DNA of 45,982 bases from a virus: the UHGV virus genome UHGV-0170246; one strand, written 5' to 3'. Both the position numbers and the translations under genes were made by a program. Under the pieces are notes generated by a model. That model had not been told where the DNA came from, ran no database searches, and was given only the letters and a program-made list of their open reading frames with translations. Below are positions 1 to 45,982 of this stretch, one piece after another (the first letter of the stretch is position 1; every line of letters starts with the position of its first letter).

Positions 1-38
1 TGGTTTTTCTGTAATGCGCCAGAAGCCTTGTTTATCGT

Positions 39-64
39 TTCCTGCAAACCGAGGTTTTTGCGAA
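39..64. other. gix/cix-like crossover site for a serine DNA invertase (TTCCTGCAAACCGAGGTTTTTGCGAA)
   Basis: Read from sequence; about 22/26 identical to the Mu gix site as I recall it; sits ~65 bp upstream of the invertase gene; nt 1-55 are the exact reverse complement of nt 45928-45982. Confidence 0.7.
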
Positions 65-2300: not shown

Positions 2301-2490
2301 AGGAAGGGGCGAGCCTTATCAATAAACGTCGATAAATACGCACACAGTAGCCATCAGAACGCGATAAAACGTAAGAAACATCGTTTCCTATTAGACATAG
2401 AAAACTTGTCTTATACGCAATGTAGTAAATTTCTATTGCCACATAGGAAAAGATTTCCTACCATCGTAGATATAATAAATGGAGATGGTT

Positions 2491-2778
2491 ATGGATAAAG
2501 ATACTGTTTTAAAAATGTTGAATCCGGCTTGTTTAAAAAAAGCGGATGAATGGGAATCTCCTACATGTGGAGAAGTTCGGGCAGTCATTGGCCTGACCGG
2601 AATGAGCGGATCGCAGTTGGCCAAAAAACTTGGCTTAAAAGATAGTCGCAATGTTCGCAACTGGCAGATGTTAAAGGAGTCCACATCCAGATCCAGCATT
2701 CCGTATGCAGCCTGGGCGCTGCTGTGTTACTTCGCTGGGTTAGGGTTAATCTTCATTGATAACAAAACAGATGTTTGA
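2491..2778 (+). CDS. Hypothetical protein, possible HTH DNA-binding protein
   Basis: ORF 2479-2778; GGAG RBS 6 nt before ATG 2491; HTH-like segment GSQLAKKLGLKDSRNVRNWQ. Confidence 0.4.
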   Translation: MDKDTVLKMLNPACLKKADEWESPTCGEVRAVIGLTGMSGSQLAKKLGLKDSRNVRNWQMLKESTSRSSIPYAAWALLCYFAGLGLIFIDNKTDV

Positions 2779-2801: not shown

Positions 2802-3065
2802 ATGGAACTTGTACGCAAAACACGCAAAGAGTTCTTGGACCTGTATCGCATGGGAGCTTTCACTTGTGTTGTGGCTACCCAGGACGAAGTGACAAAAAGC
2901 TGGCGGCTTTTTGCTCTCAATAAAAAAGGGATTGCCGTTTTCATTGAAAAAGCCCGTGGTGGTATCCGCGAATGGGCGGGATTGAATTATGTGGCTGATT
3001 TTTGCGCAGCTATGGGGATTCGTCGCTGGGAAGTCCATATGCCAGGAGTAAAGTCACAAAAATAG
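2802..3065 (+). CDS. Hypothetical protein
   Basis: ORF 2775-3065; GAGG RBS before ATG 2802; directly follows the HTH-like gene, so a possible two-gene module. Confidence 0.35.
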   Translation: MELVRKTRKEFLDLYRMGAFTCVVATQDEVTKSWRLFALNKKGIAVFIEKARGGIREWAGLNYVADFCAAMGIRRWEVHMPGVKSQK

Positions 3066-3956: not shown

Positions 3957-3971
3957 TCAGAACGAATGATA

Positions 3972-3997
3972 AGCCCCTGTTGCAAAGGGGCTTTTTT
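3972..3997 (+). terminator. Rho-independent terminator
   Basis: 7-bp stem AGCCCCT/AGGGGCT with a 7-nt loop followed by TTTTTT. Confidence 0.65.
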
Positions 3998-4003
3998 GTG
4001 CTC

Positions 4004-4119
4004 ATAGAATTATATAATTATATATTTATATAAAAAATGCTTTACAGGTGGGAAAAAATTTCCTAAGGTTATAACCGAAACCGAGCGATACCCGCCCTGG
4101 TTAAACCGGAGATAACCCG
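4004..4119 (+). repeat. Conserved promoter/leader cassette, copy A (AT-rich repeat, TTTACA -35 at 4041-4046, ~70-nt leader, GGAG RBS)
   Basis: Near-identical to 13072-13190 and 20695-20812; ends at the ATG of the downstream gene. Confidence 0.7.
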
Positions 4120-4500
4120 ATGAGCATGATTAAAATCCGCAAAAATGCTTTCCTTAAAATTCAAACTATCCTGGCTGGTTCTGTTGGCGTGATTTGCCGT
4201 TCTTCTTCAAGCCGCATCGATGACGGCTACGATGATGAGTACCGTGTGTCCTCGTGCGATGAGGCTTTAACCTGGCTGAAGGAGAATCAGGAACGTGCCC
4301 AGGTATATCTGGAAACAGAGAACGGCAATCAGATGCTGCGTATTAGCGGTCGTTATGGATTTGAAACTACATTCATGGCCTATTTTAATCAGGCTTACTT
4401 TGACAAGGAGCTGGCCTGGTACACTGATCGCATGAGCAAAAGCGAGCCAGCCCCGATTACACCGCCGAACAATAAACCATTTTTATTCCTCGTTAAGTAA
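4120..4500 (+). CDS. Hypothetical protein, first gene after cassette A
   Basis: 126-aa ORF with GGAG RBS inside the conserved leader. Confidence 0.5.
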   Translation: MSMIKIRKNAFLKIQTILAGSVGVICRSSSSRIDDGYDDEYRVSSCDEALTWLKENQERAQVYLETENGNQMLRISGRYGFETTFMAYFNQAYFDKELAWYTDRMSKSEPAPITPPNNKPFLFLVK

Positions 4501-4506
4501 ACACAA

Positions 4507-4533
4507 TGCGCAAAGTGTCATTTTGACACTTTG
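4507..4533. promoter_or_regulatory. Perfect 27-bp palindrome CGCAAAGTGTCA-TTT-TGACACTTTGCG
   Basis: Read directly; upstream of the HTH gene at 4564; a partial copy (AAAGTGTCATTTTGA) is at 13021-13035. Confidence 0.45.
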
Positions 4534-4563
4534 CGAGTGTTAATATTGTGCGAGGAGGATGCT

Positions 4564-4836
4564 ATGACGGGTTATGAATTGAAATTATGGCGTCGTGGGA
4601 TGAACTGGACGCAGGAGCGAGCCGCCGAAGAATTTGGGATATCGTTGGCTACATATAAGCGATATGAGAAGGGGGAGCCGCCGAGGGTCATTGAGATGGC
4701 CATTCGCGTTCTGTCGTTTGACGATATGGTTAAGGATCTTTCACACCTTGATAAAGATGCGATTCTGTTAAGGCTGCAAACCCTTGTATGGGAAAAGGTT
4801 AAAGTGTCGTCAGAATTGGAACAAGGGATCAAATGA
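4564..4836 (+). CDS. HTH XRE-family transcriptional regulator
   Basis: Internal ATG of ORF 4531-4836 preceded by GAGGAGG; HTH segment WTQERAAEEFGISLATYKRYE. Confidence 0.5.
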   Translation: MTGYELKLWRRGMNWTQERAAEEFGISLATYKRYEKGEPPRVIEMAIRVLSFDDMVKDLSHLDKDAILLRLQTLVWEKVKVSSELEQGIK

Positions 4837-5645: not shown

Positions 5646-6791
5646 TTATGGTCTGCTTTTCTGTGCCAGCTTATCAGCACATGTTTTTATCAGATCCTGT
5701 AGTGTCCTGGCTGGCAGGTTTGCATCCAGTACGCTGAGTATGCTGTTGTGTTCTGCTTGGTCGACTACTTTGCCTGTCGGTGGTAGTAGCTTGAGCTGAG
5801 GATTCAGGTTTTCGTCAAAGCTGATAAGTGCTCTGGCGTTTCTGAGCAGATCAAGAAGTAAGGCTGATATCACATTTTCCTGAGTCATTGCTGGCAGACT
5901 TAGCGCCGCTTTGGTTTTCCCTGTTGCCTTGTCAAACTCCTTGATTAGTTCCTTCCTGTAGTTCGGTTCCGTTAATAGCCGATTATGCTCTGTTGCCGCG
6001 CGGATAATCGTTTTTTCCTGGTATAGTCGTTTAGCCAGATCACGCTCGTACTGTGTTTTTAACACGCTGCTGATAGCGTTAAAGGCTTCAATGTAGGCCA
6101 GCTTGATATCTTTCACGCTTGGACCGTCGATGCTCTCCATGAGCAAGGTAAATCCGTCTTTTGTCATGCGATAGATTGTTATTTCGCGGTCGCTTCCTTC
6201 CAGCGGTCGTTGCTCTTTAAAGAAGTGACGCGCCGCAGCTGTGCGAGGAATGCGTAACGCATCGATGGCCATAACGATGGAATTGTTTGTGGTGCTGAAT
6301 GCCTGGGCAACATCGGCTGAGGTTGTGAGTGGCTCGTTGTTGCACACCTTAATGTAATACATTGGTTTAGCGTTGAGCGTATCGACAACCTCACGAGCAT
6401 TGTTTGGTGAGACGGTTACGGTCGCGGCCGTTTGCGCGTTCTGGTTGAAGTAGCAGTCTTCCAGCCGTTCGAATACATCCCACGCCTGATCGGTTTCGAG
6501 CATTTTAGCGTGACGTGCAGCCCCGCGTTCTGTCCAGAGGATGAGGGAGCGGACTTTAGGTGAAACTGGATTTTGAGAGTAGTTTAAAGCTACCCGCAAT
6601 TCTTTAAGGTCATTACCAACAACTTTGAAAAAGTGTTTCCCTTCAACGAAACGTGCTTTGTTCTCATGATGATTCTGGCGAATACGCACCGGCTCAGTGC
6701 CGTAAAGCTGTGCTAGTAACTCGGTAGTAATGACAGGGATTTGGTTATGCAGGATAGGCTGTAGGGTGTTAACGGTCGGAAGCGTTTTCAT
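5646..6791 (-). CDS. Antirepressor-like protein (ORF6N-type N-terminus, Rha-like central region)
   Basis: 381 aa; N-terminal pattern PVITTELLAQLYGTEPVRIRQNHHENKARFVEGKHFFK and internal TTSADVAQAF segment typical of phage Ant/Rha-type regulators (recalled domain patterns). Confidence 0.55.
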   Translation of the reverse strand: MKTLPTVNTLQPILHNQIPVITTELLAQLYGTEPVRIRQNHHENKARFVEGKHFFKVVGNDLKELRVALNYSQNPVSPKVRSLILWTERGAARHAKMLETDQAWDVFERLEDCYFNQNAQTAATVTVSPNNAREVVDTLNAKPMYYIKVCNNEPLTTSADVAQAFSTTNNSIVMAIDALRIPRTAAARHFFKEQRPLEGSDREITIYRMTKDGFTLLMESIDGPSVKDIKLAYIEAFNAISSVLKTQYERDLAKRLYQEKTIIRAATEHNRLLTEPNYRKELIKEFDKATGKTKAALSLPAMTQENVISALLLDLLRNARALISFDENLNPQLKLLPPTGKVVDQAEHNSILSVLDANLPARTLQDLIKTCADKLAQKSRP

Positions 6792-6979: not shown

Positions 6980-7394
6980 GGTGATAGTTCCCTTAAAGGT
7001 TAAGGATACTCACCACCGTCTGGTTCCAATCATTGGGTGGTGAGACGTACAGGGTTGGAACTACCGGTCACCATGGAATCCGGCGAGTCTTACGACTCCC
7101 CCGCACGCCCCACCATAATTTGGGTGTAGCAGTGCTTTACGCATAAAAAAACCGCTAACGCGGTATGCGCCATGATGATTATCGGGGTTCCAATCCCGAC
7201 CGTAGATTTTGCTACGGCTCGGAAAGTGTCCACCAATGGCGCATTTATGTCAATACAGAGGGATTTTAACAGAGACAACCACATAGCGTGGGTTTATTGG
7301 TAGGCAGAAACAAAAAAACCGCCCTATTGAGGACGGTTCTTTCGTGCTGATCGGATTCGCGGTCCTTTCAGCATAACGTCGTTGTACTAATACA

Positions 7395-7414: not shown

Positions 7415-7644
7415 AACTACATTCTTACCCAACTGAGGTGAATAGTCCACTATTCATATAAAAAAATTTAGCTCATTAGCTCATGCAAAATGAAGGTTTT
7501 TAACTTATTTACGTGTAATCTCATGTAATAAAAGCGTTTTTTATTCCTTCATTATGAAGGGTATGACGTGTAATATGGCTTGGGGCCTTTCCGCCGATTC
7601 GCACCCGGGCACTGACTTTCAGGAAAGGATTATCCACTTGCCGT

Positions 7645-7664
7645 ACCACGCAGGCACAAACAGC
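7645..7664. repeat. Direct repeat copy 2 (ACCACGCAGGCACAAACAGC)
   Basis: See copy 1. Confidence 0.6.
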
Positions 7665-7728
7665 GTGCTTGCTCTCGCGTCATTTTCGTCGGTGGGGATG
7701 CCGTGAAACGGCCTGTAAGGGCCACACA

Positions 7729-7851
7729 ATGAAAAAATACTACATGTGTATTTTTATCGTTGTTACTGGAGCTTTGTTTACGCCACATGGGGAGGGTTGG
7801 AAGATTACTGATAACGCTCTGAATGTGACGATAAACATTAGCAGCAAGTAG
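7729..7851 (+). CDS. Possible small hydrophobic peptide (40 aa)
   Basis: In-frame ATG of ORF 7669-7851; one predicted transmembrane stretch (YYMCIFIVVTGALF); followed at once by a strong terminator; no recognisable family. Confidence 0.2.
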   Translation: MKKYYMCIFIVVTGALFTPHGEGWKITDNALNVTINISSK

Positions 7852-7856
7852 CGATT

Positions 7857-7880
7857 AGGCCCCTTCGGGGGCCTTTTTTA
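7857..7880 (+). terminator. Rho-independent terminator
   Basis: 7-bp stem AGGCCCC/GGGGCCT with TTCG tetraloop followed by TTTTTT. Confidence 0.75.
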
Positions 7881-8276: not shown

Positions 8277-8525
8277 TTACTTCTGGTTGTATTGAGCCTT
8301 GAGTAACTCAAAAGATTTTGTCAGCACTTCTTTCAATGACATATCCATTGAACTGGCGAACGTTTTGTACTCGCGTTTAAATTCAGGGTCGACGTTAAAC
8401 GCCATTTGTGCCCCACCTGATTTGGTTCTGGTTGGCGTTTCAGTCGGGTCGAAAACCTGCGGTTGTTCGATCGATGGCGGTACGCCTTTGCTGTTCTTCT
8501 TTGGTGGTTTTGATGGTGCGGCCAT
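8277..8525 (-). CDS. ParG-like ribbon-helix-helix centromere-binding protein
   Basis: 82 aa, immediately downstream of parA; unstructured basic N-terminal tail and C-terminal RHH-like segment (FNVDPEFKREYKTFASSMDMSLKEVL). Confidence 0.6.
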   Translation of the reverse strand: MAAPSKPPKKNSKGVPPSIEQPQVFDPTETPTRTKSGGAQMAFNVDPEFKREYKTFASSMDMSLKEVLTKSFELLKAQYNQK

Positions 8526-8537
8526 GTGTATCCCCTC

Positions 8538-8570
8538 TTATATAAATCTATAAAACTATAATTATATATT
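8538..8570. repeat. AT-rich motif locus (TATAAATCTATAAAACTATAATTATATATT) downstream of parG
   Basis: Member of the dispersed TATAATTATATA(AAT) motif family. Confidence 0.55.
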
Positions 8571-9237
8571 ACGCGGCAGTAGTCAGAGCCTCAAGCTGGT
8601 TGATAATCCCCTGAATAACGTCGTCTGCCTTTTTGCGTGGCGCAACGTATGAGCATTCAATGAGGCTTAAGCCCTTATCCTGAGCTTTGCTCAGAGCTGG
8701 CTTGTGGGGAATGTACTTATCGACAACAAAGTATGGCGTATTAGCCAGGTACTCTTGGGCTTCAATATAGTCAGCTTCATTTTCAGCCGCGCCGGAAAAC
8801 ACCATGCAAATTTTCTTGATTGGCACACCCTTTTTAACGATGCCGTGAGCAGTGTTAACGGTGGTTTCCAGGTCATCGGTAGAGAATCGGGTTGGCAAAA
8901 TAACCATATCCAGAAATTCAGATAGCTTCGGTACTGATTCAGATGCGTAGGCACCGCCATCAACGATAACCAGGTCGTATACTTCTGATTCGATGATTTT
9001 CTGGACTTGTGATGGTGTGCCGCACGGCTGCGCCGCGATTGCTGGTTCGATATTGTTGGCCATTCTGCGTTGTACCCAACGCGTTACCGTTCCGTTAAGC
9101 ACATCCATATCGATCAGGCATACATTCCAGCCAGCCTTTGCATAAGCAACTGCTAAAGCACGGGCAATTGTTGATTTGGTTACGCCGCCTTTTCCGTTGA
9201 AAATACCTACAGAGATAGTCATTTGTCGAGACTCCAT
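8569..9237 (-). CDS. parA: ParA-family partition ATPase (small type Ib ParA/ParF-like)
   Basis: 222 aa; deviant Walker A GKGGVTKST near the N-terminus; followed by a small RHH protein gene. Confidence 0.8.
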   Translation of the reverse strand: MESRQMTISVGIFNGKGGVTKSTIARALAVAYAKAGWNVCLIDMDVLNGTVTRWVQRRMANNIEPAIAAQPCGTPSQVQKIIESEVYDLVIVDGGAYASESVPKLSEFLDMVILPTRFSTDDLETTVNTAHGIVKKGVPIKKICMVFSGAAENEADYIEAQEYLANTPYFVVDKYIPHKPALSKAQDKGLSLIECSYVAPRKKADDVIQGIINQLEALTTAA

Positions 9238-9246
9238 GTGTTTGGT

Positions 9247-9350
9247 TATATAATTCTATAAATCTATATTTATAGAACGAGGTAAGCATAACCAACTTTT
9301 TGGCGGATGGAAAGTGTTTTATATAATTATATAAATCTATAATCATATAA
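9247..9350. repeat. Two AT-rich motif blocks upstream of parA (candidate par promoter/centromere)
   Basis: TATATAATTCTATAAATCTATATTTATAGA and TTATATAATTATATAAATCTATAATCATATAA read directly. Confidence 0.55.
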
Positions 9351-9372
9351 GCGGGCGTTAGCCCGCTTGCAG

Positions 9373-10496: not shown

Positions 10497-10532
10497 GTCT
10501 CATCAATCGTGAATGGTGGGTTATTTATACAT

Positions 10533-10652
10533 TACCACATTTAGTGGTTTTCACATGGTAAGACGAGAGGTGGACCACAAATAGAAGGTTATTTTTTGTT
10601 TCGCCCATTGAAAAACTCACGATATGTGGTTTTAATACCACATATCGTGGTT
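10533..10652. promoter_or_regulatory. Immunity-region operator cluster: three palindromes of the ACCAC-N5-GTGGT type
   Basis: TACCACATTTAGTGGTT (10533-10549), ACTCACGATATGTGGTT (10615-10631), TACCACATATCGTGGTT (10636-10652) between the divergent repressor and rightward early genes. Confidence 0.65.
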
Positions 10653-10670
10653 TTAACTGGAGTTCGTTAA

Positions 10671-13071: not shown

Positions 13072-13190
13072 AAATCTATAAATATATAATTATAGATTTA
13101 TATAAAAAGTGCTTTACAGGTGGGAAAAAATTTCCTAAGGTTATACCCGAAACCGAGCGATACCCGCCCTGGTTAAACCGGAGAAATCTG
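13072..13190 (+). repeat. Conserved promoter/leader cassette, copy B (TTTACA at 13113-13118)
   Basis: Near-identical to cassettes A and C; ends at ATG 13191. Confidence 0.7.
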
Positions 13191-14258
13191 ATGAATAAAC
13201 AAGTAATTATTTCTGACTGGATCAACAACCCTAACAGCCTGTTAAGCACTGATACTGGCTACCTATTACGCCATGTTAATGGTCGTATGGTCAAAAGCGA
13301 TGAGCACGAAACCTTTTTCTTTGTTGAAGACGATGGGCGTATCTATGAGGATGGTTACTCTTATGAAGCCCAAACTGGTTGTATCCCTGCGGAGCTGGTG
13401 GACGTAACAGAAGATCTGCGCAAAGCATGGCTTGAACAGCAGCAGCGCGGAGATGATTACGTAAACACCTATCAGGAACGCCAGAACGCGCGTCTTGCCC
13501 GATATATTGCTCGTGCAGAAAAAGCCAGAAAAGAAGGTGCGGTAGCGCATAAGCGAGCGCATGACCTGTTGGATGTGATCCCGTTAGGCCAGCCGATTTT
13601 AGTTGACCATTATAGCGCGAAAGGCCATCGCCGCCGTTTGTCTAAAGCTGATGCGTTATTCAGAAAAGCGTTTGTTGAATGCGAAAGTAAAGCATCACAC
13701 TACGAGAGCAAAGCCGCAGGTGTTGGTCGTAATGGAATTTCGTCTGATGATCCTGATGCGCTATTTAAGTTGCTTCGTAAGCTGCAAGGCTGCATGAAGT
13801 CACACGTCAAAATGAAGGCAGCAAATAAGGCCATTCGCAAATACAAAAAAGACCAATTACAGCAGCTTTCTGCATTAATCGATCTCAGGTTTACAGAAAG
13901 CGAAGCCAAAGAGTTACTGGCCGGAGATTTCTGTGGGCACATCGGATTCCCTTCATACGCACTGAGCAACAATAAGGCCGAAATCAAACGACTACAGAGC
14001 CGTATTAAGGAGCTTGAATCGGTCAAGTCTGTAACAGGAGCACAGCGCGAAGAATACGACGGCTTTTCTATGGAGATAGATCCAGAGGATAACCGCATCC
14101 TGTTTTATTTCCCTGGCAAACCAGAGGCAAACATTCGTTCGCTGCTTAAATCACGCGCCTTTAAGTGGAGTCCAACCCGTAATGCATGGGTTCGCAAGAT
14201 TACTCCAAACGCCCTGGCTGATGCCCGATATCTGAAAGAATCGCTATTGAAAGCCTGA
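13191..14258 (+). CDS. Hypothetical protein (355 aa), first gene after cassette B
   Basis: Long ORF with GGAG RBS in the conserved leader; family not recognised. Confidence 0.5.
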   Translation: MNKQVIISDWINNPNSLLSTDTGYLLRHVNGRMVKSDEHETFFFVEDDGRIYEDGYSYEAQTGCIPAELVDVTEDLRKAWLEQQQRGDDYVNTYQERQNARLARYIARAEKARKEGAVAHKRAHDLLDVIPLGQPILVDHYSAKGHRRRLSKADALFRKAFVECESKASHYESKAAGVGRNGISSDDPDALFKLLRKLQGCMKSHVKMKAANKAIRKYKKDQLQQLSALIDLRFTESEAKELLAGDFCGHIGFPSYALSNNKAEIKRLQSRIKELESVKSVTGAQREEYDGFSMEIDPEDNRILFYFPGKPEANIRSLLKSRAFKWSPTRNAWVRKITPNALADARYLKESLLKA

Positions 14259-14288: not shown

Positions 14289-14320
14289 GTATATAGAATT
14301 ATATATTTATATAAATGTAT
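14289..14320. repeat. AT-rich motif locus (TATATAGAATTATATATTTATATAAATGTATA)
   Basis: Shares the ATAGAATTATATA core with cassettes A and C. Confidence 0.5.
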
Positions 14321-14335
14321 AAGGACGCCTCGACA

Positions 14336-14617
14336 ATGAAACGCAAAATTATTAACCCCCAAGATGTGATTAATTTCCTGACCGATCACCCATGTTCAAA
14401 AGTGGACGTAATCGCGGAGCACATTGGTGTGTCGCAGAACTCTATGCGTTGCAGACTGAGAAGCATGGTTGCCGAAGGACAGATAACAACCAGGAAAATA
14501 AATGGTTGCCTGTACTACTCCGCTAAACCGGAATTGCCATTTGGCATGAATCCTAACTCCATGTTGTTTAACACCTTATTAGCCAAAGTTAAGCCGTTGA
14601 GAGGGGCTGTGGCATGA
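14336..14617 (+). CDS. Hypothetical protein, possible winged-helix DNA-binding protein
   Basis: Internal ATG of ORF 14315-14617. Confidence 0.35.
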   Translation: MKRKIINPQDVINFLTDHPCSKVDVIAEHIGVSQNSMRCRLRSMVAEGQITTRKINGCLYYSAKPELPFGMNPNSMLFNTLLAKVKPLRGAVA

Positions 14618-19435: not shown

Positions 19436-19559
19436 TACCGCCTGTGATTGGGTAAAGCCCATCTACCTGACTGATCACGACATCGATGTTATGGACCGAC
19501 AGACAAAGAAAGATATTCTGGCTCATAACAGGGCATGGGAAATCAACTGTCCAAAGTAA
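19350..19559 (+). CDS. Putative o-spanin lipoprotein (Rz1-like), overlapping the i-spanin gene in another frame
   Basis: 69 aa; signal peptide with lipobox LIASC. Confidence 0.5.
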   Translation: MYSRVLTIWLMTMLIASCGSRGSVPVVVDTACDWVKPIYLTDHDIDVMDRQTKKDILAHNRAWEINCPK

Positions 19560-19594
19560 TATATATTTCTATAATTATATAAATATATAGTTAC
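19558..19594. repeat. AT-rich motif locus (ATATATTTCTATAATTATATAAATATATAG)
   Basis: Contains the CTATAATTATATAAAT core shared with the par-flanking repeats. Confidence 0.5.
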
Positions 19595-19728
19595 AACATT
19601 CTATGCGCTTTTCTCATGGGCGCACGCATCAACCATGTTTGTCTGATATGCCGCCGCGCCCAAAAATCCTGAATTTATTGGCTGGGATTTTCGTGCGCGG
19701 CGCCACACCAGACAAACAAATCAAATAT

Positions 19729-19804
19729 GGCCCCTTAGCTCAGTGGTTAGAGCAGGCGACTCATAATCGCACGGTCATCGGTTCAAATCCGGTAGGGGCC
19801 ACCA
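19729..19804 (+). tRNA. tRNA with anticodon CAU (Met, or Ile2 if lysidine-modified)
   Basis: Hand-folded cloverleaf: 7-bp acceptor stem GGCCCCT/AGGGGCC, D arm, anticodon loop CTCATAA, T arm GGTTCAAATCC, encoded CCA; strongly resembles E. coli ileX as I recall it. Confidence 0.85.
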
Positions 19805-20111
19805 ATTCACTCTCACACATAAAGATAAGCGCGGTGGAGTTACTTCTTCGTGCTCATCTTTATGCGTGCCTGGTGCGCATTTCGGGCGAACGTGGGGCTA
19901 AGTTACAGGCAGGGCCTGTTATCCGCAAAGGGGTAAAAGCTGGAGCGGCACGGAACTGTAGCCGTGTTACCAAAACAGCGTTGTCGGGCGATATCCGGCA
20001 CACAACAGGCAAGGGCATTAATCAGTCTGGTTAGTGCCCTTTTCGTTGTGTTTGCTGTAGAGCTGGCCAGCGTTATGACTGCCGGAGATAAGCGCCGGAG
20101 GCACAATTAAC

Positions 20112-20699
20112 ATGGAGGCAATTGCATTGTTTAATCTGATTTATGCAGATCCCCCCTGGGAATACAAAGACAAGTGTAAGGATGGGAATCGTGGAGCTGG
20201 TTTTAAGTATCCAACGATGAAAGCTGAGGAGATTGCTCGTATTCCTGTCTGGCAGCTTGCTAATCCTGAATCGTGTTTGTTGGCCATGTGGTGGGTTCCG
20301 ACTCAGCCAGAAGAAGCGTTGCTGGTGGTTAAAGCATGGGGATTCAGGCTGATGACCATGAAGGGCTTCACATGGAACAAATGTGGTAGCCGACAACCAG
20401 ATAAGCTGGTGATGGGGATGGGGCATATGACTCGTGCAAACAGTGAAGATTGCTTGTTTGCGGTAAAAGGCAAACTGCCGACCCGTCTTGATGCGGGGAT
20501 CATTCAGTCGTTTACATCGCCTCGTCTGGAGCATTCTCGGAAGCCTGATGTGGTCCGTGACAAGCTGGTAAAGCTGTTAGGTGATGTTCCTCGTATTGAG
20601 CTGTTTGCTCGCGGTGATTTACCTGATGGCTGGCATGGCTGGGGCAACCAGTGCAATGGAGGTATCCAGTTGCATGATGCTCTCTGGCAAGTGGCATAG
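20112..20699 (+). CDS. MT-A70 family N6-adenine DNA methyltransferase
   Basis: 195 aa; DPPW catalytic motif (YADPPWEY) near the N-terminus. Confidence 0.8.
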   Translation: MEAIALFNLIYADPPWEYKDKCKDGNRGAGFKYPTMKAEEIARIPVWQLANPESCLLAMWWVPTQPEEALLVVKAWGFRLMTMKGFTWNKCGSRQPDKLVMGMGHMTRANSEDCLFAVKGKLPTRLDAGIIQSFTSPRLEHSRKPDVVRDKLVKLLGDVPRIELFARGDLPDGWHGWGNQCNGGIQLHDALWQVA

Positions 20700-20812
20700 A
20701 ATTATATAATTATAGATTTATATAAAAAGTGCTTTACAGGTGGGAAAAAAATTTCCTAAGGTTATACCCGAAACCGAGCGATACCCGCCCTGGTTAAACC
20801 GGAGATAACCCG
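20695..20812 (+). repeat. Conserved promoter/leader cassette, copy C (TTTACA at 20733-20738)
   Basis: Near-identical to cassettes A and B; ends at ATG 20813. Confidence 0.7.
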
Positions 20813-21082
20813 ATGAAAGTACAAGACCGTGAAGTAGTAAAAAACCTCCTGCAATACCTGACCTCAAAAAACCTGACGGGCAGCGTTGAGTTCCGTGAAG
20901 CGTTAAAACATTTCAACGTCACTACGGTTTATCGTTGGGAAAACGAACATTCTGAAAGACCGTATGTGGTGGATGTTTTTGCGCCTGATATTGAGTGCGG
21001 TTTTGAGCGTCATTCGTTCAAGGAGAAACATTCCGCTGATGTTTTTTGTGAGGTTGTATGTGCGGCAGGAGATGATGAGTGA
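20813..21082 (+). CDS. Hypothetical protein, first gene after cassette C
   Basis: 89-aa ORF with GGAG RBS in the conserved leader. Confidence 0.45.
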   Translation: MKVQDREVVKNLLQYLTSKNLTGSVEFREALKHFNVTTVYRWENEHSERPYVVDVFAPDIECGFERHSFKEKHSADVFCEVVCAAGDDE

Positions 21083-21279
21083 TGCGTATTTCCTTCAAAC
21101 GTGCGACTGAGCAGCAACGCAAAGAGTTCCTGGCTGATGATGTAGCGGCCGTTTATGACCTCATGAAAGAGGTTGTGGAATCAGGGAACTACACGGCGGC
21201 AAAGATGCTTAAACTGCAATTCTTGCTGGGCGACCTGAAATACAAATCCGAAGTTGTCGCCGGACGACGCGAGCATTAA
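21079..21279 (+). CDS. Hypothetical protein
   Basis: 66-aa ORF with ATGA overlap; followed by a terminator. Confidence 0.4.
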   Translation: MMRISFKRATEQQRKEFLADDVAAVYDLMKEVVESGNYTAAKMLKLQFLLGDLKYKSEVVAGRREH

Positions 21280-21302
21280 ACCGTAACGATAACGAACAAC
21301 GA

Positions 21303-21329
21303 GCCTCGGCAATTGCCGGGGCTTTTTTA
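21303..21329 (+). terminator. Rho-independent terminator
   Basis: Hairpin around the CCGGCAATTGCCGG palindrome followed by TTTTTT. Confidence 0.65.
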
Positions 21330-37446: not shown

Positions 37447-40239
37447 ATGGCCAGCAATAAGAACTTTAAGCTGGCTTTTGAAATTGGCGGCAAAGTTGCC
37501 GCCTCTCTCCCCAAAAGTTTTACTACAGCTAATCAGGCTGTTGCTAAATTAAATGCCGAGCTTGCTGGATTAACGAAAGAACATGGGGAAATTCAAAAGC
37601 TACAATCTGTAAAAGTAAAGGTTGGACAGACTGCCCTCGAATATCATAAAGCTGCCGCTCGCGTTGAAGAGTTACAGAAGCAAATAAAAAACACGGCCAA
37701 TCCAACCAGAGCGATGCTTCGTGACTTTGAGAAGGCAAAAACACATTCATCAAATTTACGAGCATCACTACGTTCTCAGCGTGAAGAACTGGCCGCTTTA
37801 AAGTCTGCGTATCAGGGAGCTGATACATCTGCCAGAGCTTTGGCCTCAAGAGAGAAAGAGCTTAAAGCAAGCATTGATCGTAATCGTGAGGCTCAGGCCC
37901 GTAGCGTTGAGCAGGTTAACCGCTACAGAACGGCTTTGGCTTTAGCCAGAGCAAATGTTCAGCAAGTGAAAAAACAGCAGGAGGAACTTAACCGGGCATT
38001 AGAAAAACAACGTATTGATAAAATTAACAGTTATAAAAATGCGTTGGCTGAAGCACGGAAAAATGTTCTTGCAGTAAAACGTGCTCAGGAGGAGTTAAAC
38101 CGCGCGTTGGAAAGGCAGCGTGAATTGAAGCGAGAGCATCTTGGTGAGGCAAAGAGTCAACTTGTAAGGTCAGGATTACAAACTGGTGCTGTAGCGGCTG
38201 GTGCATTTGCTGCTGCTAACAATGCAGCAAATTTCAATCGTGAAAACAAAATGATTGGTCTTACGGCAGATATGAAGCCGGAAGAAGTTCAGGCGATGGG
38301 GCAGGCGATGCTTGTTACCGGAACGGCCACCAACCAGTTTGCATCTGATATTCAGGCCGCTCAGGGTTTTCTCGTCGCTGCTGGGCAGGATTATAAAGAG
38401 GCTCAGGCGAATCTACTAACTATTGGGCGAACAGCTACAGCTACTGGCTCTGATATCCTCGATGTCTCGAAAGCATCATTTACATTAAGTGACTCATTGA
38501 AGATTGATCCATCTCAAATGAAGTCTGCAATGGGGATTCTGGTTCAGGCAGGGAAAGAGGGAAACTTTGAATTTAAAGATATGGCCAAAAATCTTCCTGT
38601 GCTTGGTGCTCAGTTCCAGGCATTAAAAATGGGAGGTAAAGAAGCCGCCGCGACGATGGGGGCAGCTTTGCAGATAGCTCGCAAAGGTGCTGCAACTTCG
38701 GATGAGGCTGCTAATAATATGAACAACTTTTTGGCAAAAATACTTTCCCCTGAAACACTAAAAAAAGCAAAGAAAAATTTCGGTGTAGATTTATATAAAA
38801 TTGTCACAACAGCGCAGAAAAAAGGGAAGAATCCATTCGAAGCTGCAATGCATTCTGTCATGAAAATGACTAAGAACGGAGATCAGAAGTTACTTGGTGA
38901 ACTATTTGGCGATATGCAGGTTCAGAACTTTGTTCGTCCGATGATTCAAAACTGGAAGGAATACCAGAGAATCAAAGCAACATCTCTTGGAGCTGGAAGT
39001 GCTGTTATTGACCGCGATTTTGCCAACATAACGAAAGATAATGCGGAGCGATTGAAACAATTACGTATTCAGGCTAGCAATGCATCATTAAGTTTTGGTC
39101 AGGCCTTGCAACCTGCTTTGAATGCCGCGCTTAGTGTTTTGGTTCCGCTGATTACAAAAATTAGTGAATTTGTAGCTAACAACCCCAATTTTGTGTCTCA
39201 GATAGTGATGGCGGCAGGTGCGTTTCTAACCATGAAAAGTGTGGTTATAGCGTGTAGGGTAGCTATGCTGGCTTTATCTGTAGCGACAAAGCTAACACCC
39301 TTCGGGTGGATTCAGATGGCTATATCTGCGCTGGTTGCCGCAGGAATATTGCTCTATCAGAACTGGGATAAGATCAGAGATTATGCTGTCAGAGTTTGGC
39401 CTTCTGTTAAGGAATATACAGTTAAATCGTTTGAGACTATAAAAAACTTTATCTTAAACTTTGATCTCAATGGATGGATTATATCTATATTTGGTAAAGC
39501 ATGGGATTATCTTTCCAACATAAACTGGAGTTCGGCAGGAGTAAGAATTTACAGTACATTAATTAGTGCTTTTAAATGGATGTCTCCGCTTCCGTTCTTA
39601 ATTAAAGCATTTAAACTTACAACAAATTACCTTTCTGGCATTAACTGGAGCGAAACAGGAAAGAAAATCATAGATACACTGGTATCTGTTTTTATGCGTT
39701 TTTCGCCAGTTGGACTCTTTATAAGAGCATTCCAATCTGTAACGGCTTATTTATCTGGAATAAACTGGAGTGAGTCAGGTGCAAAAATAATTGAGACGTT
39801 AATCATTGGGATAAAATCAAAAGCAAATGCTTTAATTAATGAAGTGAAAGGCGTTTTTTCTTCTGTACGTGAGTATTTACCGTTCTCTGACGCGAAAAAA
39901 GGTCCATTCTCACAGCTAACAAAGTCAGGTGGTGCAATAATGACTACTCTGGCATCAGGTGTTAGCAGGAATAACAGCTTACAGAATGCAATAGCAACCA
40001 AGTTCGGGCAATCAAATTTATCACCTCACGGGATATCTGCCGCCGGGACTTCTGGACCTCGCCAGAACGTTAATGCTGTGACTGGTGGAATAACCTATTC
40101 ACCTGTAATCAATCTTCCGGCTGGTTCACCAAAGGAAACTGAGGCGGCAGCTAAAAGAGCATTAGATGCGGGATATTCTGATTTTGAGAAGAAATTGAGT
40201 GCTCATATGTTCCAACAACGGAGATTAAGTTTTGGATGA
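37447..40239 (+). CDS. Tail tape measure protein
   Basis: 930 aa; coiled-coil N-terminal region, central hydrophobic segments, W-containing repeats (GINWSE x3). Confidence 0.85.
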   Translation: MASNKNFKLAFEIGGKVAASLPKSFTTANQAVAKLNAELAGLTKEHGEIQKLQSVKVKVGQTALEYHKAAARVEELQKQIKNTANPTRAMLRDFEKAKTHSSNLRASLRSQREELAALKSAYQGADTSARALASREKELKASIDRNREAQARSVEQVNRYRTALALARANVQQVKKQQEELNRALEKQRIDKINSYKNALAEARKNVLAVKRAQEELNRALERQRELKREHLGEAKSQLVRSGLQTGAVAAGAFAAANNAANFNRENKMIGLTADMKPEEVQAMGQAMLVTGTATNQFASDIQAAQGFLVAAGQDYKEAQANLLTIGRTATATGSDILDVSKASFTLSDSLKIDPSQMKSAMGILVQAGKEGNFEFKDMAKNLPVLGAQFQALKMGGKEAAATMGAALQIARKGAATSDEAANNMNNFLAKILSPETLKKAKKNFGVDLYKIVTTAQKKGKNPFEAAMHSVMKMTKNGDQKLLGELFGDMQVQNFVRPMIQNWKEYQRIKATSLGAGSAVIDRDFANITKDNAERLKQLRIQASNASLSFGQALQPALNAALSVLVPLITKISEFVANNPNFVSQIVMAAGAFLTMKSVVIACRVAMLALSVATKLTPFGWIQMAISALVAAGILLYQNWDKIRDYAVRVWPSVKEYTVKSFETIKNFILNFDLNGWIISIFGKAWDYLSNINWSSAGVRIYSTLISAFKWMSPLPFLIKAFKLTTNYLSGINWSETGKKIIDTLVSVFMRFSPVGLFIRAFQSVTAYLSGINWSESGAKIIETLIIGIKSKANALINEVKGVFSSVREYLPFSDAKKGPFSQLTKSGGAIMTTLASGVSRNNSLQNAIATKFGQSNLSPHGISAAGTSGPRQNVNAVTGGITYSPVINLPAGSPKETEAAAKRALDAGYSDFEKKLSAHMFQQRRLSFG

Positions 40240-44570: not shown

Positions 44571-45982
44571 GTGAGTAAATTATTATTTACGATGACTGAC
44601 GCCGGGCGTCAGGAGCTGGTTAATGCCAACAAAACAGGAACAAATAAAGTTGAGATTGTTTCTGTTGGTTTAGGTAGTAGATATTATGTCACGTCAACTT
44701 CACAAACAAATATAACAAACGAAATAAAACGACTTACCACAATAGGTGGCAAAGTTGTTTCCCCTGATACAATTCATGTAACAGCGAAGGATGATAGTAA
44801 AGATGAGTATGTTGTCCATACAATAGGATTGTATACGAATAAGGGTACGTTGTTTGCTGTATACTCACAAGAACAAGCAATAATAAATAAAGCATCATCT
44901 ACTATCGCTTTAATATCAAGTGATATAGCAATTAAAACTCTTGATACTAAAAATATTACATTTGGTGATATTGAGTTTATTAATCCTCCCGCGACCGAAA
45001 CTGTTGTTGGGGTGGCAAGATTTGCTAATGAACAAGAAATTGATGCAGGTACAGATGATTCCCTTGCTGTTTCAGCAAAACGGCTTAAGCAAGCCATTGT
45101 GAAACATGAGCAATCACGTAATCATCCTGATGCAACTTTAACCTCAAAAGGCTTTGTTCAACTTAGCAGCGCCACCAATAGCGCGTCTGAAACGCTTGCT
45201 GCGACGCCTAAGGCTGTTAAGGCAGCATATGACCTGGCTAATGCTAAATACACCGCACAGGACGCTACCACAGCGCGAAAAGGGATTGTTCAGCTCAGTA
45301 GTGCCACCAACAGCACGTCTGAAACGCTGGCAGCAACACCAAAGGCTGTTAAGGCAGCGTATGATCTTGCGGCCGGAAAGGCTCCGTCCAATCACACGCA
45401 TTCGTGGGAGCAGATAACAAATGTGCCTGTAGCTTCACTGACTGTAAGGGGAATAACTCAGCTCAGTAGTGCCACCAACAGCACGTCTGAAACACTGGCC
45501 GCGACATCGAAAGCTGTAAAGGTGGTAATGGATGAAACGAACAAGAAAGCGCCCCTGAACAGTCCGGCGCTGACCGGAACACCAACAACACCAACTGCGC
45601 CAAAAGGTACTAACAATACTCAGATCGCAAGCACGGCTTATGTTATGGCTGCGATTGCCGCCCTTGTAGATTCGTCACCTGACGCACTGAATACGCTGAA
45701 CGAGTTAGCGGCGGCGCTGGGAAACGACCCGAATTTTGCGACCACCATGACTAACGCGCTTGCGGGTAAGCAACCGAAAGATGCCACCCTGACGGCGCTG
45801 GCCGGGCTTGCTACTGCGGCAGACAGGTTTCCGTATTTTACGGGGAATGATGTCGCCAGCCTGGCAACTCTGACAAAAGTCGGGCGGGATATTCTTGCGA
45901 AATCGACCGTTGCCGCCGTTATCGAATACCTCGGTTTGCAGGAAACGATAAACAAGGCTTCTGGCGCATTACAGAAAAACCA
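44571..45982 (+). CDS. Tail fibre protein (P2 gpH / Mu S-like constant part), 3'-truncated by the window edge
   Basis: GTG start; open frame to the window end, absent from the ORF track because there is no stop; three tandem fibre repeats; reading frame runs through the gix-like site at 45919-45944. Confidence 0.8.
   Translation, partial: MSKLLFTMTDAGRQELVNANKTGTNKVEIVSVGLGSRYYVTSTSQTNITNEIKRLTTIGGKVVSPDTIHVTAKDDSKDEYVVHTIGLYTNKGTLFAVYSQEQAIINKASSTIALISSDIAIKTLDTKNITFGDIEFINPPATETVVGVARFANEQEIDAGTDDSLAVSAKRLKQAIVKHEQSRNHPDATLTSKGFVQLSSATNSASETLAATPKAVKAAYDLANAKYTAQDATTARKGIVQLSSATNSTSETLAATPKAVKAAYDLAAGKAPSNHTHSWEQITNVPVASLTVRGITQLSSATNSTSETLAATSKAVKVVMDETNKKAPLNSPALTGTPTTPTAPKGTNNTQIASTAYVMAAIAALVDSSPDALNTLNELAAALGNDPNFATTMTNALAGKQPKDATLTALAGLATAADRFPYFTGNDVASLATLTKVGRDILAKSTVAAVIEYLGLQETINKASGALQKN
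45150..45535 (+). repeat. Three tandem ~90-bp coding repeats inside the tail fibre gene (GxVQLSSATNSxSETLAATPKAVKAAYDLA)
   Basis: Read directly at ~45150-45242, 45280-45372 and 45446-45535. Confidence 0.8.
45919..45944. other. gix/cix-like crossover site (TTATCGAATACCTCGGTTTGCAGGAA), inverted partner of 39-64
   Basis: About 23/26 identical to the Mu gix site as recalled; lies inside the tail fibre reading frame. Confidence 0.7.

Follow-up and report, generated by a model that had tools for sequence, protein, structure and literature searches.

A stretch of 45,982 nucleotides from the UHGV virus genome UHGV-0170246 (the window, by which we mean the whole of this stretch) contains three near-identical copies of a promoter and leader cassette, each placed directly before a different gene. 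Because myovirus structural genes are combined with plasmid functions in the window, which encodes an IncFII-type RepA (855-1847), a HigB/HigA toxin-antitoxin pair, a small ParA and a CI-like repressor, the element is an enterobacterial phage-plasmid. It is about 99% identical to the Yersinia phages vB_YpM_39, 41 and 44, which have circular genomes of 49 kb. The original prediction was that conservation of the cassettes before unrelated genes reflects one shared regulatory input, exerted perhaps by a repressor, by an activator or through an RNA element of the leader. Our comparative data support such a shared input: the cassettes have two operator-type elements in common with the promoters of candidate regulator genes, and their leaders are predicted to fold into a covarying hairpin.

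Cassette copies, layout and cargo

The three cassettes, delimited by self-BLAST, alignment and scripted sub-coordinates, all lie on the plus strand. Cassette 1 (4004-4119) consists of an AT-rich array (4004-4035), a -35 element TTTACA (4041-4046), an inverted-repeat operator (4049-4065), a -10 element TAAGGT (4064-4069), a leader hairpin (4079-4102) and a Shine-Dalgarno (SD) sequence GGAG (4108-4111), followed by the ATG at 4120. Cassette 2 (13076-13190) has its array at 13076-13107, the -35 element at 13113-13118, the inverted repeat at 13121-13137, the -10 element at 13136-13141, the hairpin at 13151-13174, the SD sequence at 13180-13183 and the ATG at 13191; it deviates in the first array unit and the final 8 nt. 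In cassette 3 (20696-20812), the array (20696-20727), -35 element (20733-20738), inverted repeat (20741-20758), -10 element (20757-20762), hairpin (20772-20795) and SD sequence (20801-20804) precede the ATG at 20813, and an extra single A in the mini-palindrome expands the spacer to 18 nt.

Self-BLAST of the window confirms the near-identity of the copies (96.7%, 95.1% and 93.3% over 119-122 nt, E 1e-44 to 1e-52). As predicted, the cassettes end exactly at the ATG, since the alignment identity runs from the AT-rich block to the start codon between unrelated flanks, and a script check located all the named elements in the copies (AT-rich block, TTTACA, the mini-palindrome GGGAAAAAATTTCC, leader and GGAG). 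The leader had been put too long, at about 70 nt: its transcribed part is about 45-50 nt, with 58-59 nt from the start of the -10 element to the ATG. Across relatives, the distance from -10 to ATG is constant at 57-60 nt. The module thus reads, in order, four AT-rich 8-bp units, 3-5 nt, the -35 element, a 17-nt spacer with an inverted repeat that runs into the -10 element, about 10 nt, a bipartite hairpin of 24 nt, 5 nt, GGAG, 8 nt and ATG.

The full phage genome OR545053 contains exactly three copies. At the cassette edges, a test for a miniature inverted-repeat transposable element (MITE) or other transposable repeat found neither terminal inverted repeats nor a target-site duplication. Rfam 15 has no match inside any cassette at the gathering threshold, its matches in the window being ryfA, C4, isrK and a tRNA. 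A limited search of the literature on phage-plasmids, Aca proteins, anti-defence and partition did not yield a description of the cassettes; a paper on the "pseudolysogenic" phage vB_YpM_HQ103 was set aside, as this is an unrelated 32-kb P2-like phage.

A search of related elements, suggested with the original prediction besides alignment of the cassettes, brought up further cassettes in Salmonella, Serratia and IMG/VR relatives. The cassette occurs in 66 PLSDB plasmids, nearly all of which are E. coli replicons that are non-mobilisable, measure about 48 kb and have three copies apiece; one belongs to E. coli ATCC 25922. A Salmonella and two Serratia phage-plasmids also have three cassettes each, and the IMG/VR relatives have two to four, located within 10 kb of parA. 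In these divergent relatives, with ParA proteins that are 52-56% identical, the anatomy of the cassette is kept while its sequence has diverged. No cassette was found at the more distant ParA loci L024-L027 (35% identity).

Cassette 1 precedes cargo A (4120-4500, plus strand, 126 amino acids (aa), phrog_8090), cassette 2 precedes cargo B (13191-14258, plus strand, 355 aa, DUF3560), and cassette 3 heads an operon of cargo C (20813-21082, plus strand, 89 aa) and a 66-aa open reading frame (ORF; 21079-21279, plus strand). A terminator lies before cassette 1 (3971-3993) and a strong intrinsic terminator (21301-21324) closes the cassette 3 operon, so that the cassette units are insulated on these sides. 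The downstream genes had been described as unrelated to one another. This holds within the window, but several of them have cassette-driven homologues in other lineages, among them homologues of cargo A with 96-98 aa in the L017-L021 clade. Counted over all lineages, at least 11 unrelated cargo families follow cassettes, of which six are shared by two or more lineages; those from outside the window include DUF1391 and families of 103 aa and of 80-86 aa. DUF3560 and DUF1391 are the only domain matches of cargo in Pfam and NCBIfam. In IncF plasmids, DUF3560 genes are known from the leading region, where ssb and a SAM-methyltransferase gene flank them (PMC11781037). Small and variable as they are, the cargo genes are candidates for anti-defence or establishment genes; an anti-defence role in particular is a tentative assignment to which we give slightly less than even weight.

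Two operator-type elements and their candidate binding proteins

The -35 element and the mini-palindrome keep their position in every relative. The -35 variants in cassettes are TTTACA, TTGCAG and TTGCGC, the -10 variants TAAGGT, TATGGT, TAATAT and TATTAT, and the spacer between them has 17 nt. The inverted repeat in this spacer is of the type TAGGA-N7-TCCTA, and its final two bases open the -10 element. A motif search found a fourth copy of the inverted repeat in every genome or lineage, at the same promoter position, in the promoter of a helix-turn-helix (HTH) gene. In the window, this fourth promoter (2436-2464, plus strand) has TTGCCA (2436-2441) and TACCAT (2459-2464) as -35 and -10 elements, separated by a 17-nt spacer with the inverted repeat TAGGAAAAGATTTCCTA (2444-2460). 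It lacks both the array and the hairpin.

The gene behind this promoter (2491-2778, within the ORF 2479-2778, plus strand) encodes a 95-aa Aca-like HTH protein, our candidate for a repressor that binds the inverted repeat; downstream of it lies a conserved 87-aa gene (2802-3065). Pfam has no match for the 95-aa protein. A profile of its homologues, compared with PDB sequences, matched residues 154-218 of AcrIF24 (E=6.7e-8) and Aca3 (E=0.005), and no further PDB sequence below E=0.9. Its AlphaFold2 model (pLDDT 84) had AcrIF24 as top Foldseek match (33% identity, probability 1.0), followed by Aca1 (probability 1.0) and, lower down, by Aca2, controller proteins and antitoxin HTHs. The gene is found in all lineages with cassettes. 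In the L017-L021 clade, the operon consists of a cassette, a 103-aa cargo gene and then the Aca-like HTH gene, which is the classical acr-aca layout. From this co-occurrence and the shared operator, the 95-aa protein probably binds the inverted repeat, with TGGGAAAAAATTTCCTA as the proposed target sequence.

AcrIF24 represses its own promoter by binding of its HTH domain to a short inverted repeat (PMC9638941). The C-terminal HTH ("body") domain of AcrIF24, together with Aca3 (PDB 7dtr, 7elm, 9vt3), is the sequence homologue and best structural match of the window protein, which differs in standing alone with 95 aa, without Acr domains, and in its operator sequence and hosts. The likeness extends to the acr-aca promoters of Aca1 and Aca2, with an HTH autorepressor (a putative one in the window), an inverted repeat inside the promoter and one regulator predicted for several operons of small genes. 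Indeed, Aca proteins have been predicted to control several neighbouring operons (bioRxiv 10.64898/2026.07.27.740549). Unlike in acr-aca operons, the HTH gene of the window is under its own promoter without hairpin, the cassette operons are not adjacent and lie up to 18 kb away, the cassettes add a partition-type array, none of the cargo is a validated Acr, and the 95-aa protein falls outside the named Aca families.

Two other regulators were considered. The 90-aa HTH protein encoded downstream of cargo A (4564-4836) was rejected as general regulator, because only the E. coli and Salmonella lineages have it and the 95-aa protein occurs in every lineage. The CI-like repressor was ruled out as binder of the inverted repeat, as the cI-cro region has other palindromes, of the type ACCACA...TGTGGT. 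Several such ACCACA-N-TGTGGT-type palindromes lie in the cI-cro intergenic region (10500-10660); they are presumably CI operators and have no relation to that of the cassettes. A perfect palindrome with 12-bp arms (4509-4535, CGCAAAGTGTCA-TTT-TGACACTTTGCG) lies in the interval from cargo A to the 90-aa HTH gene; it is probably the operator of the 90-aa HTH protein itself and not a terminator. At the start codon of the same gene (window point 4566), vB_YpM_41 and 44 have an insert of about 323 bp (OR545054, vB_YpM_41: L003 1266-1588). With its terminal inverted repeats of about 30 nt (GGGGTTCCGTGGGAATTTCTGCGATAACAC ... GTGTATTATCGCAGAAATGCCCACGGAACCCC) and duplicated GCTATG flanks, the insert is MITE-like; it is not present in the window.

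The 95-aa family is large, with about 470 clusters at 50% identity. A Paraburkholderia homologue is encoded downstream of an ArdB/KlcA antirestriction gene, DUF932 and DUF3717. A profile search of genome contigs with the HTH alignment found only two Paraburkholderia loci, neither of them with a cassette. A distant homologue (L042, 238-561) is located just upstream of kleE-incC-korB-kfrB on an IncP-like contig, and another (L039, 4001-4714) is the C-terminal domain of a 237-aa protein adjoining genes of a Dot/Icm-type type IV secretion system, which together suggest a wider regulator family on mobile elements. In L019 (20560-20640), an extra pair of Aca-type inverted repeats surrounds a TTTACA promoter, about 5 kb past the cassettes, so the regulon may be larger in some lineages.

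The second operator-type element is the AT-rich block. In the cassettes it consists of four 8-bp units; units of this kind appear at ten overlapping positions in the output of a repeat finder. A detector for AT-rich repeats of period 8 found exactly eight arrays and none elsewhere in the window: three in the cassettes, three around the par genes, one before the SD sequence of gene 14315-14617 and one before a tRNA gene. The par genes are on the minus strand. The first encodes a small Walker-type ParA of type Ib (8569-9237, a 222-aa ORF with likely start at 9222), with Pfam CbiA/ParA/MipZ matches from residue 10, assignment to phrog_164 and no N-terminal DNA-binding domain. Downstream of it, an 82-aa protein (8277-8525) is a candidate ParG-like centromere-binding protein. 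Its AlphaFold2 model starts with a basic, disordered N-terminal tail, on which a short extended segment and two helices follow. Structure and profile searches did not identify a ribbon-helix-helix fold, which is a candidate. Arrays on the minus strand flank both genes: the parA promoter region (9243-9353; -35 TTTCCA, 17 nt, -10 TATGCT) has one upstream array (9317-9353) and a second one in the 5' untranslated region (9243-9277), and the third (8537-8572) separates parA from the ParG-like gene.

The upstream array ends 3 nt before the -35 element at the parA promoter and 5 nt before it in the cassettes. Across lineages, the ends of the arrays at par promoters and cassettes are mostly 1-6 nt from the -35 element, and about 10 nt in clade L017. 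The par promoter has arrays without the cassette-type inverted repeat, and the fourth promoter has the inverted repeat without an array, so that only the cassettes have both. The units of the arrays come in dialects: par locus and cassettes of one genome share a dialect, and four groups of lineages differ in it. The dialect follows a short extended segment of the 82-aa protein, a predicted beta-strand just before the two C-terminal helices: TATAGAWT goes with QMAFNV in E. coli and Salmonella, TAAATAWT or TAAAGAWT with xMNFNV in Serratia, TAAAGAWT with LMNFNV in L022, and GATATAWW with QLLLRL in L017-L021. At the level of sequence, a protein and its binding site would be expected to behave in this way. 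As the dialect tracks the ParG-like protein, the arrays appear to be a specific binding site and not generic AT-rich DNA, and the 82-aa protein is likely to be what binds them.

The closest known arrangement is that of plasmid TP228, where ParG boxes with an 8-bp period, in direct and inverted orientation, serve both as centromere and as operator for repression of parFG (PMC3130281). As in TP228 parH/OF, a small ParA gene is followed by that of a small flexible-tailed protein, and arrays with 8-bp period are found around the par promoter. The window differs in that its units are purely AT-rich 8-mers, in that the ribbon-helix-helix fold of the 82-aa protein is only a candidate, and in that arrays are also present at three non-par promoters carrying a second, unrelated operator.

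The two remaining arrays are on the plus strand. The one at 14291-14324 lies directly upstream of the SD sequence of gene 14315-14617, which encodes a MarR/winged-HTH-like protein. It is followed by GGACGCCTCGACAATG, closely like the translation-initiation region of parA, GGAGTCTCGACAAATG (14291-14340 versus 9215-9280 on the minus strand). The resemblance points to a second, smaller repeated unit, composed of array and SD region, before parA and gene 14315-14617. The other array (19557-19596) lies about 130 nt upstream of the tRNA gene (19729-19801), which is annotated as tRNA-Met in OR545053; a 143-aa ORF that overlaps the tRNA gene (19603-20034) is probably spurious.

The leader hairpin and the proposed regulation of the cassettes

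A covariance analysis of the leader, also proposed with the original prediction, points to a conserved structure. From 25 distinct aligned leaders, RNAalifold derived a consensus hairpin with which the single-sequence folds agree in each lineage. Its eight pairs are standard in 90.5% of cells, versus 12-40% for slid partners. Three pairs (17-40, 18-39 and 23-33) exchange GC, AU and GU, and none of 500 shuffles reached the observed covariation score. Its lower stem (AACC:GGUU in E. coli, GGCC:GGCC in Serratia, GACC:GGUC in L022) is followed by 1-2 unpaired bases and a covarying upper stem. The hairpin begins about 3-5 nt past the predicted start site; 5 nt separate its end from the SD sequence, and about 20 nt separate it from the start codon. 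When 382 kb of loci, related and unrelated, were searched with a covariance model of the leaders, the known cassettes were the only matches. Purified Aca1 binds an RNA motif in the 5' untranslated region of acr-aca1 operons (bioRxiv 10.64898/2026.07.27.740549). That motif is likewise a bipartite hairpin with a covarying upper stem, which lies directly past the start site (a predicted one in the cassettes) and ends about 20 nt before the start codon. We also considered that the hairpin mimics an operator half-site. Such a likeness (GGAC...GUC) is seen only in clade L017, and was taken as coincidence. That the hairpin acts as a regulatory target at the RNA level is possible, though we consider it somewhat less likely than not.

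Together, the data suggest a model in which the cassette would be a sigma-70 promoter module governed by probably two repressors, the Aca-like and the ParG-like protein, with an RNA element in the leader; on the sequence evidence, we moderately favour this combination. When phage DNA enters a cell, both regulators would be absent, the three cassette promoters would fire and the small cargo proteins would be made. A dimer of the Aca-like protein would then settle on the inverted repeat between the -35 and -10 elements, blocking RNA polymerase at its own promoter and at the three cassettes. The ParG-like adaptor would coat the arrays upstream of the -35 element, as at the par promoter, adding repression and a link to the plasmid state, and the arrays may serve as additional centromere sites. 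The hairpin, finally, could be a second target of the Aca-like protein, for translational repression as reported for Aca1 and Aca2, or a stabiliser of the 5' end of the mRNA.

Another type Ib partition adaptor with a second role as transcriptional repressor, the omega protein of pSM19035, binds heptad arrays at several promoters, for copy control, partition and a toxin-antitoxin system. In the IncP KorA/KorB regulon, many dispersed operons are repressed by a partition protein together with a small HTH repressor, with a burst of expression on entering a new host. Joint repression of dispersed operons is what we propose here, and a homologue of the 95-aa protein sits directly upstream of kleE-incC-korB-kfrB; however, KorB is a ParB-type protein and not a small ParG-like adaptor, and the operators and proteins are unrelated in sequence.

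Several points weigh against the model. Binding and expression are inferred throughout, from comparative evidence. The effect of the ParG-like protein at the cassettes could be repression, activation or none. A consensus sigma-70 scan (at least 4/6 matches in each hexamer, spacer of 16-18 nt) calls no promoter at any of the three window cassettes, because the -10 element of the window is weak: TAAGGT matches the consensus in 3/6 positions, TTTACA in 5/6. We have kept the promoter assignment since the relatives have good hexamers at the same positions, with better -10 elements than the window, and satisfy the sigma-70 rule, for example with TTGCAG-17-TAATAT. The stability of the hairpin is not exceptional (z-scores -0.6 to -1.5), and its covariation stems from about 4-5 independent lineages, as copies within one genome are not independent. 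Because of these few lineages, the support for the hairpin is good, not overwhelming. Finally, no cargo protein matches a known anti-defence protein or a solved structure in Pfam, NCBIfam, PHROGs or PDB; hints of an anti-defence role are indirect, namely the ArdB/KlcA gene near a homologue of the 95-aa protein and the occurrence of DUF3560 in IncF leading regions.

The arrays could also be silent in transcription. In that case the cassettes would be Aca-type repressed promoters only, and the arrays would be dispersed centromere sites, or UP-like or bent DNA. The phage-plasmid N15 has four natural centromere sites that are spread over its genome and not clustered, AT-rich DNA upstream of a -35 element can stimulate transcription without a specific protein, and the arrays at 14291 and 19557 do not adjoin a recognisable promoter. 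Yet the N15 sites are single SopB inverted repeats instead of arrays and lie outside any repeated promoter and leader cassette. Moreover, the distance from array to -35 element is similarly short in every lineage, which is the position of repression by a type Ib adaptor, and the link between array dialect and ParG-like protein argues against unspecific DNA. We therefore see silent arrays as an unlikely alternative that still deserves some weight. It is improbable that the cassettes are middle or late phage promoters requiring a phage activator on the inverted repeat or the array. The weak -10 element, the failure of the consensus scan and the location of cassette 3 near the start of the late region would fit an activator, but the hexamers of relatives are near consensus (TTGCAG/TAATAT, TTGCGC/TATTAT) with 17-nt spacing, the inverted repeat takes up the spacer and reaches into the -10 element, which is where a repressor would sit, the structural and lysis operons have no cassette, and the nearest relatives of the 95-aa HTH protein are autorepressors.

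The variety of the cargo raises the question whether the cassette serves above all for recombination or mobility, as a repeated landing pad by which cargo is moved, with regulation as a by-product. Comparable modules are known from T4-type phages, whose PeSL cassettes combine a promoter and a stem-loop in about 50 bp before variable small ORFs and show signs of modular gene shuffling; unlike the cassettes described here, they have no repressor operators or partition arrays, and both phage type and sequence are unrelated to the window. The count of at least 11 cargo families, the gain and loss of cassette-plus-cargo units among syntenic relatives, and the closer identity of copies within a genome (91-98%) than between orthologous copies (81-87%) all speak for mobility. 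The cassette edges, in contrast, have no terminal inverted repeats or target duplications, and recombination alone does not suffice to explain why the positions of the sub-elements are conserved and why both operators co-vary with a candidate trans-acting partner. As the sole explanation, mobility has only a slim chance; we would rather regard it as a further property of the cassette than as a rival explanation. A recent, functionless duplication would agree with the near-identity of the three window copies. It can be excluded for practical purposes, because the architecture recurs in relatives with ParA proteins 52-56% identical, where cassettes of about 50-68% identity have kept their spacing and the substitutions in the hairpin are compensatory.

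To return to regulation by the two repressors and the leader, each part of the cassette is of a known kind, and the combination was not found described in our limited literature search: a partition-type array, an Aca-type operator and an RNA motif, repeated at operons scattered over a phage-plasmid that also encodes a stand-alone HTH protein like that of AcrIF24. The recently described logic of Aca control, with an operator placed in the promoter, an RNA motif in the leader and a regulator that serves several operons, would be extended to a new HTH family and to phage-plasmids. The suggestion that a partition adaptor is wired into the same promoters was likewise not met in the literature within the limits of that search. 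If true, cargo expression would depend on whether the element is newly arrived or established as a plasmid. In its most far-reaching form, the partition adaptor and the Aca-like HTH protein would jointly gate a dispersed anti-defence or establishment regulon, and the cassette, besides being a doubly repressed burst promoter, would be a target of RNA control by binding of the Aca-like protein to the hairpin, an extra centromere and a landing pad for the exchange of cargo, so that one module would link plasmid segregation, copy state and counter-defence; this we put forward as speculation with a modest chance of being correct in full. In any case, the cassette flags a ready list of candidate anti-defence or establishment genes, with its at least 11 families of small proteins, in a phage-plasmid group frequent among clinical E. 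coli, Salmonella, Serratia and Yersinia.

Probable homogenisation of the copies and other features of the window

Cassettes within one genome are 91-96% identical in the window genome, 95-98% in the Salmonella plasmid and 71-90% in other lineages, while orthologous cassettes of the window genome and the Salmonella plasmid share 81-87% identity. That copies within a genome are more alike than orthologues suggests lineage-specific homogenisation of an old, constrained module. The near-identity of the three copies may have arisen by gene conversion on top of the old architecture. Relatives whose gene order otherwise agrees differ by the gain or loss of whole units of cassette and cargo (L020 has unit E, for example, and L017 lacks it), so the repeats probably also help in the turnover of cargo.

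Some features of the window lie apart from the cassettes. Rfam identifies a C4 antisense RNA (7033-7120, minus strand) and isrK (7145-7218, minus strand) upstream of an Ant/Rha-like gene (5646-6791, minus strand), an arrangement that resembles the P1 immI anti-repressor control region. A full-length ryfA RNA (7581-7879, plus strand), also found by Rfam, occupies a place where relatives have a gene for a 190-aa HTH regulator. In-frame tandem repeats with periods of 120 nt and about 132-168 nt are present at 39504-39788 and 45146-45538, in the tape-measure and tail-fibre genes. The ends of the window (1-58 and 45925-45982) form an inverted repeat of 98% identity, and a Hin-like invertase gene (129-683) with tail-fibre genes at the opposite end fits an invertible tail-fibre segment.

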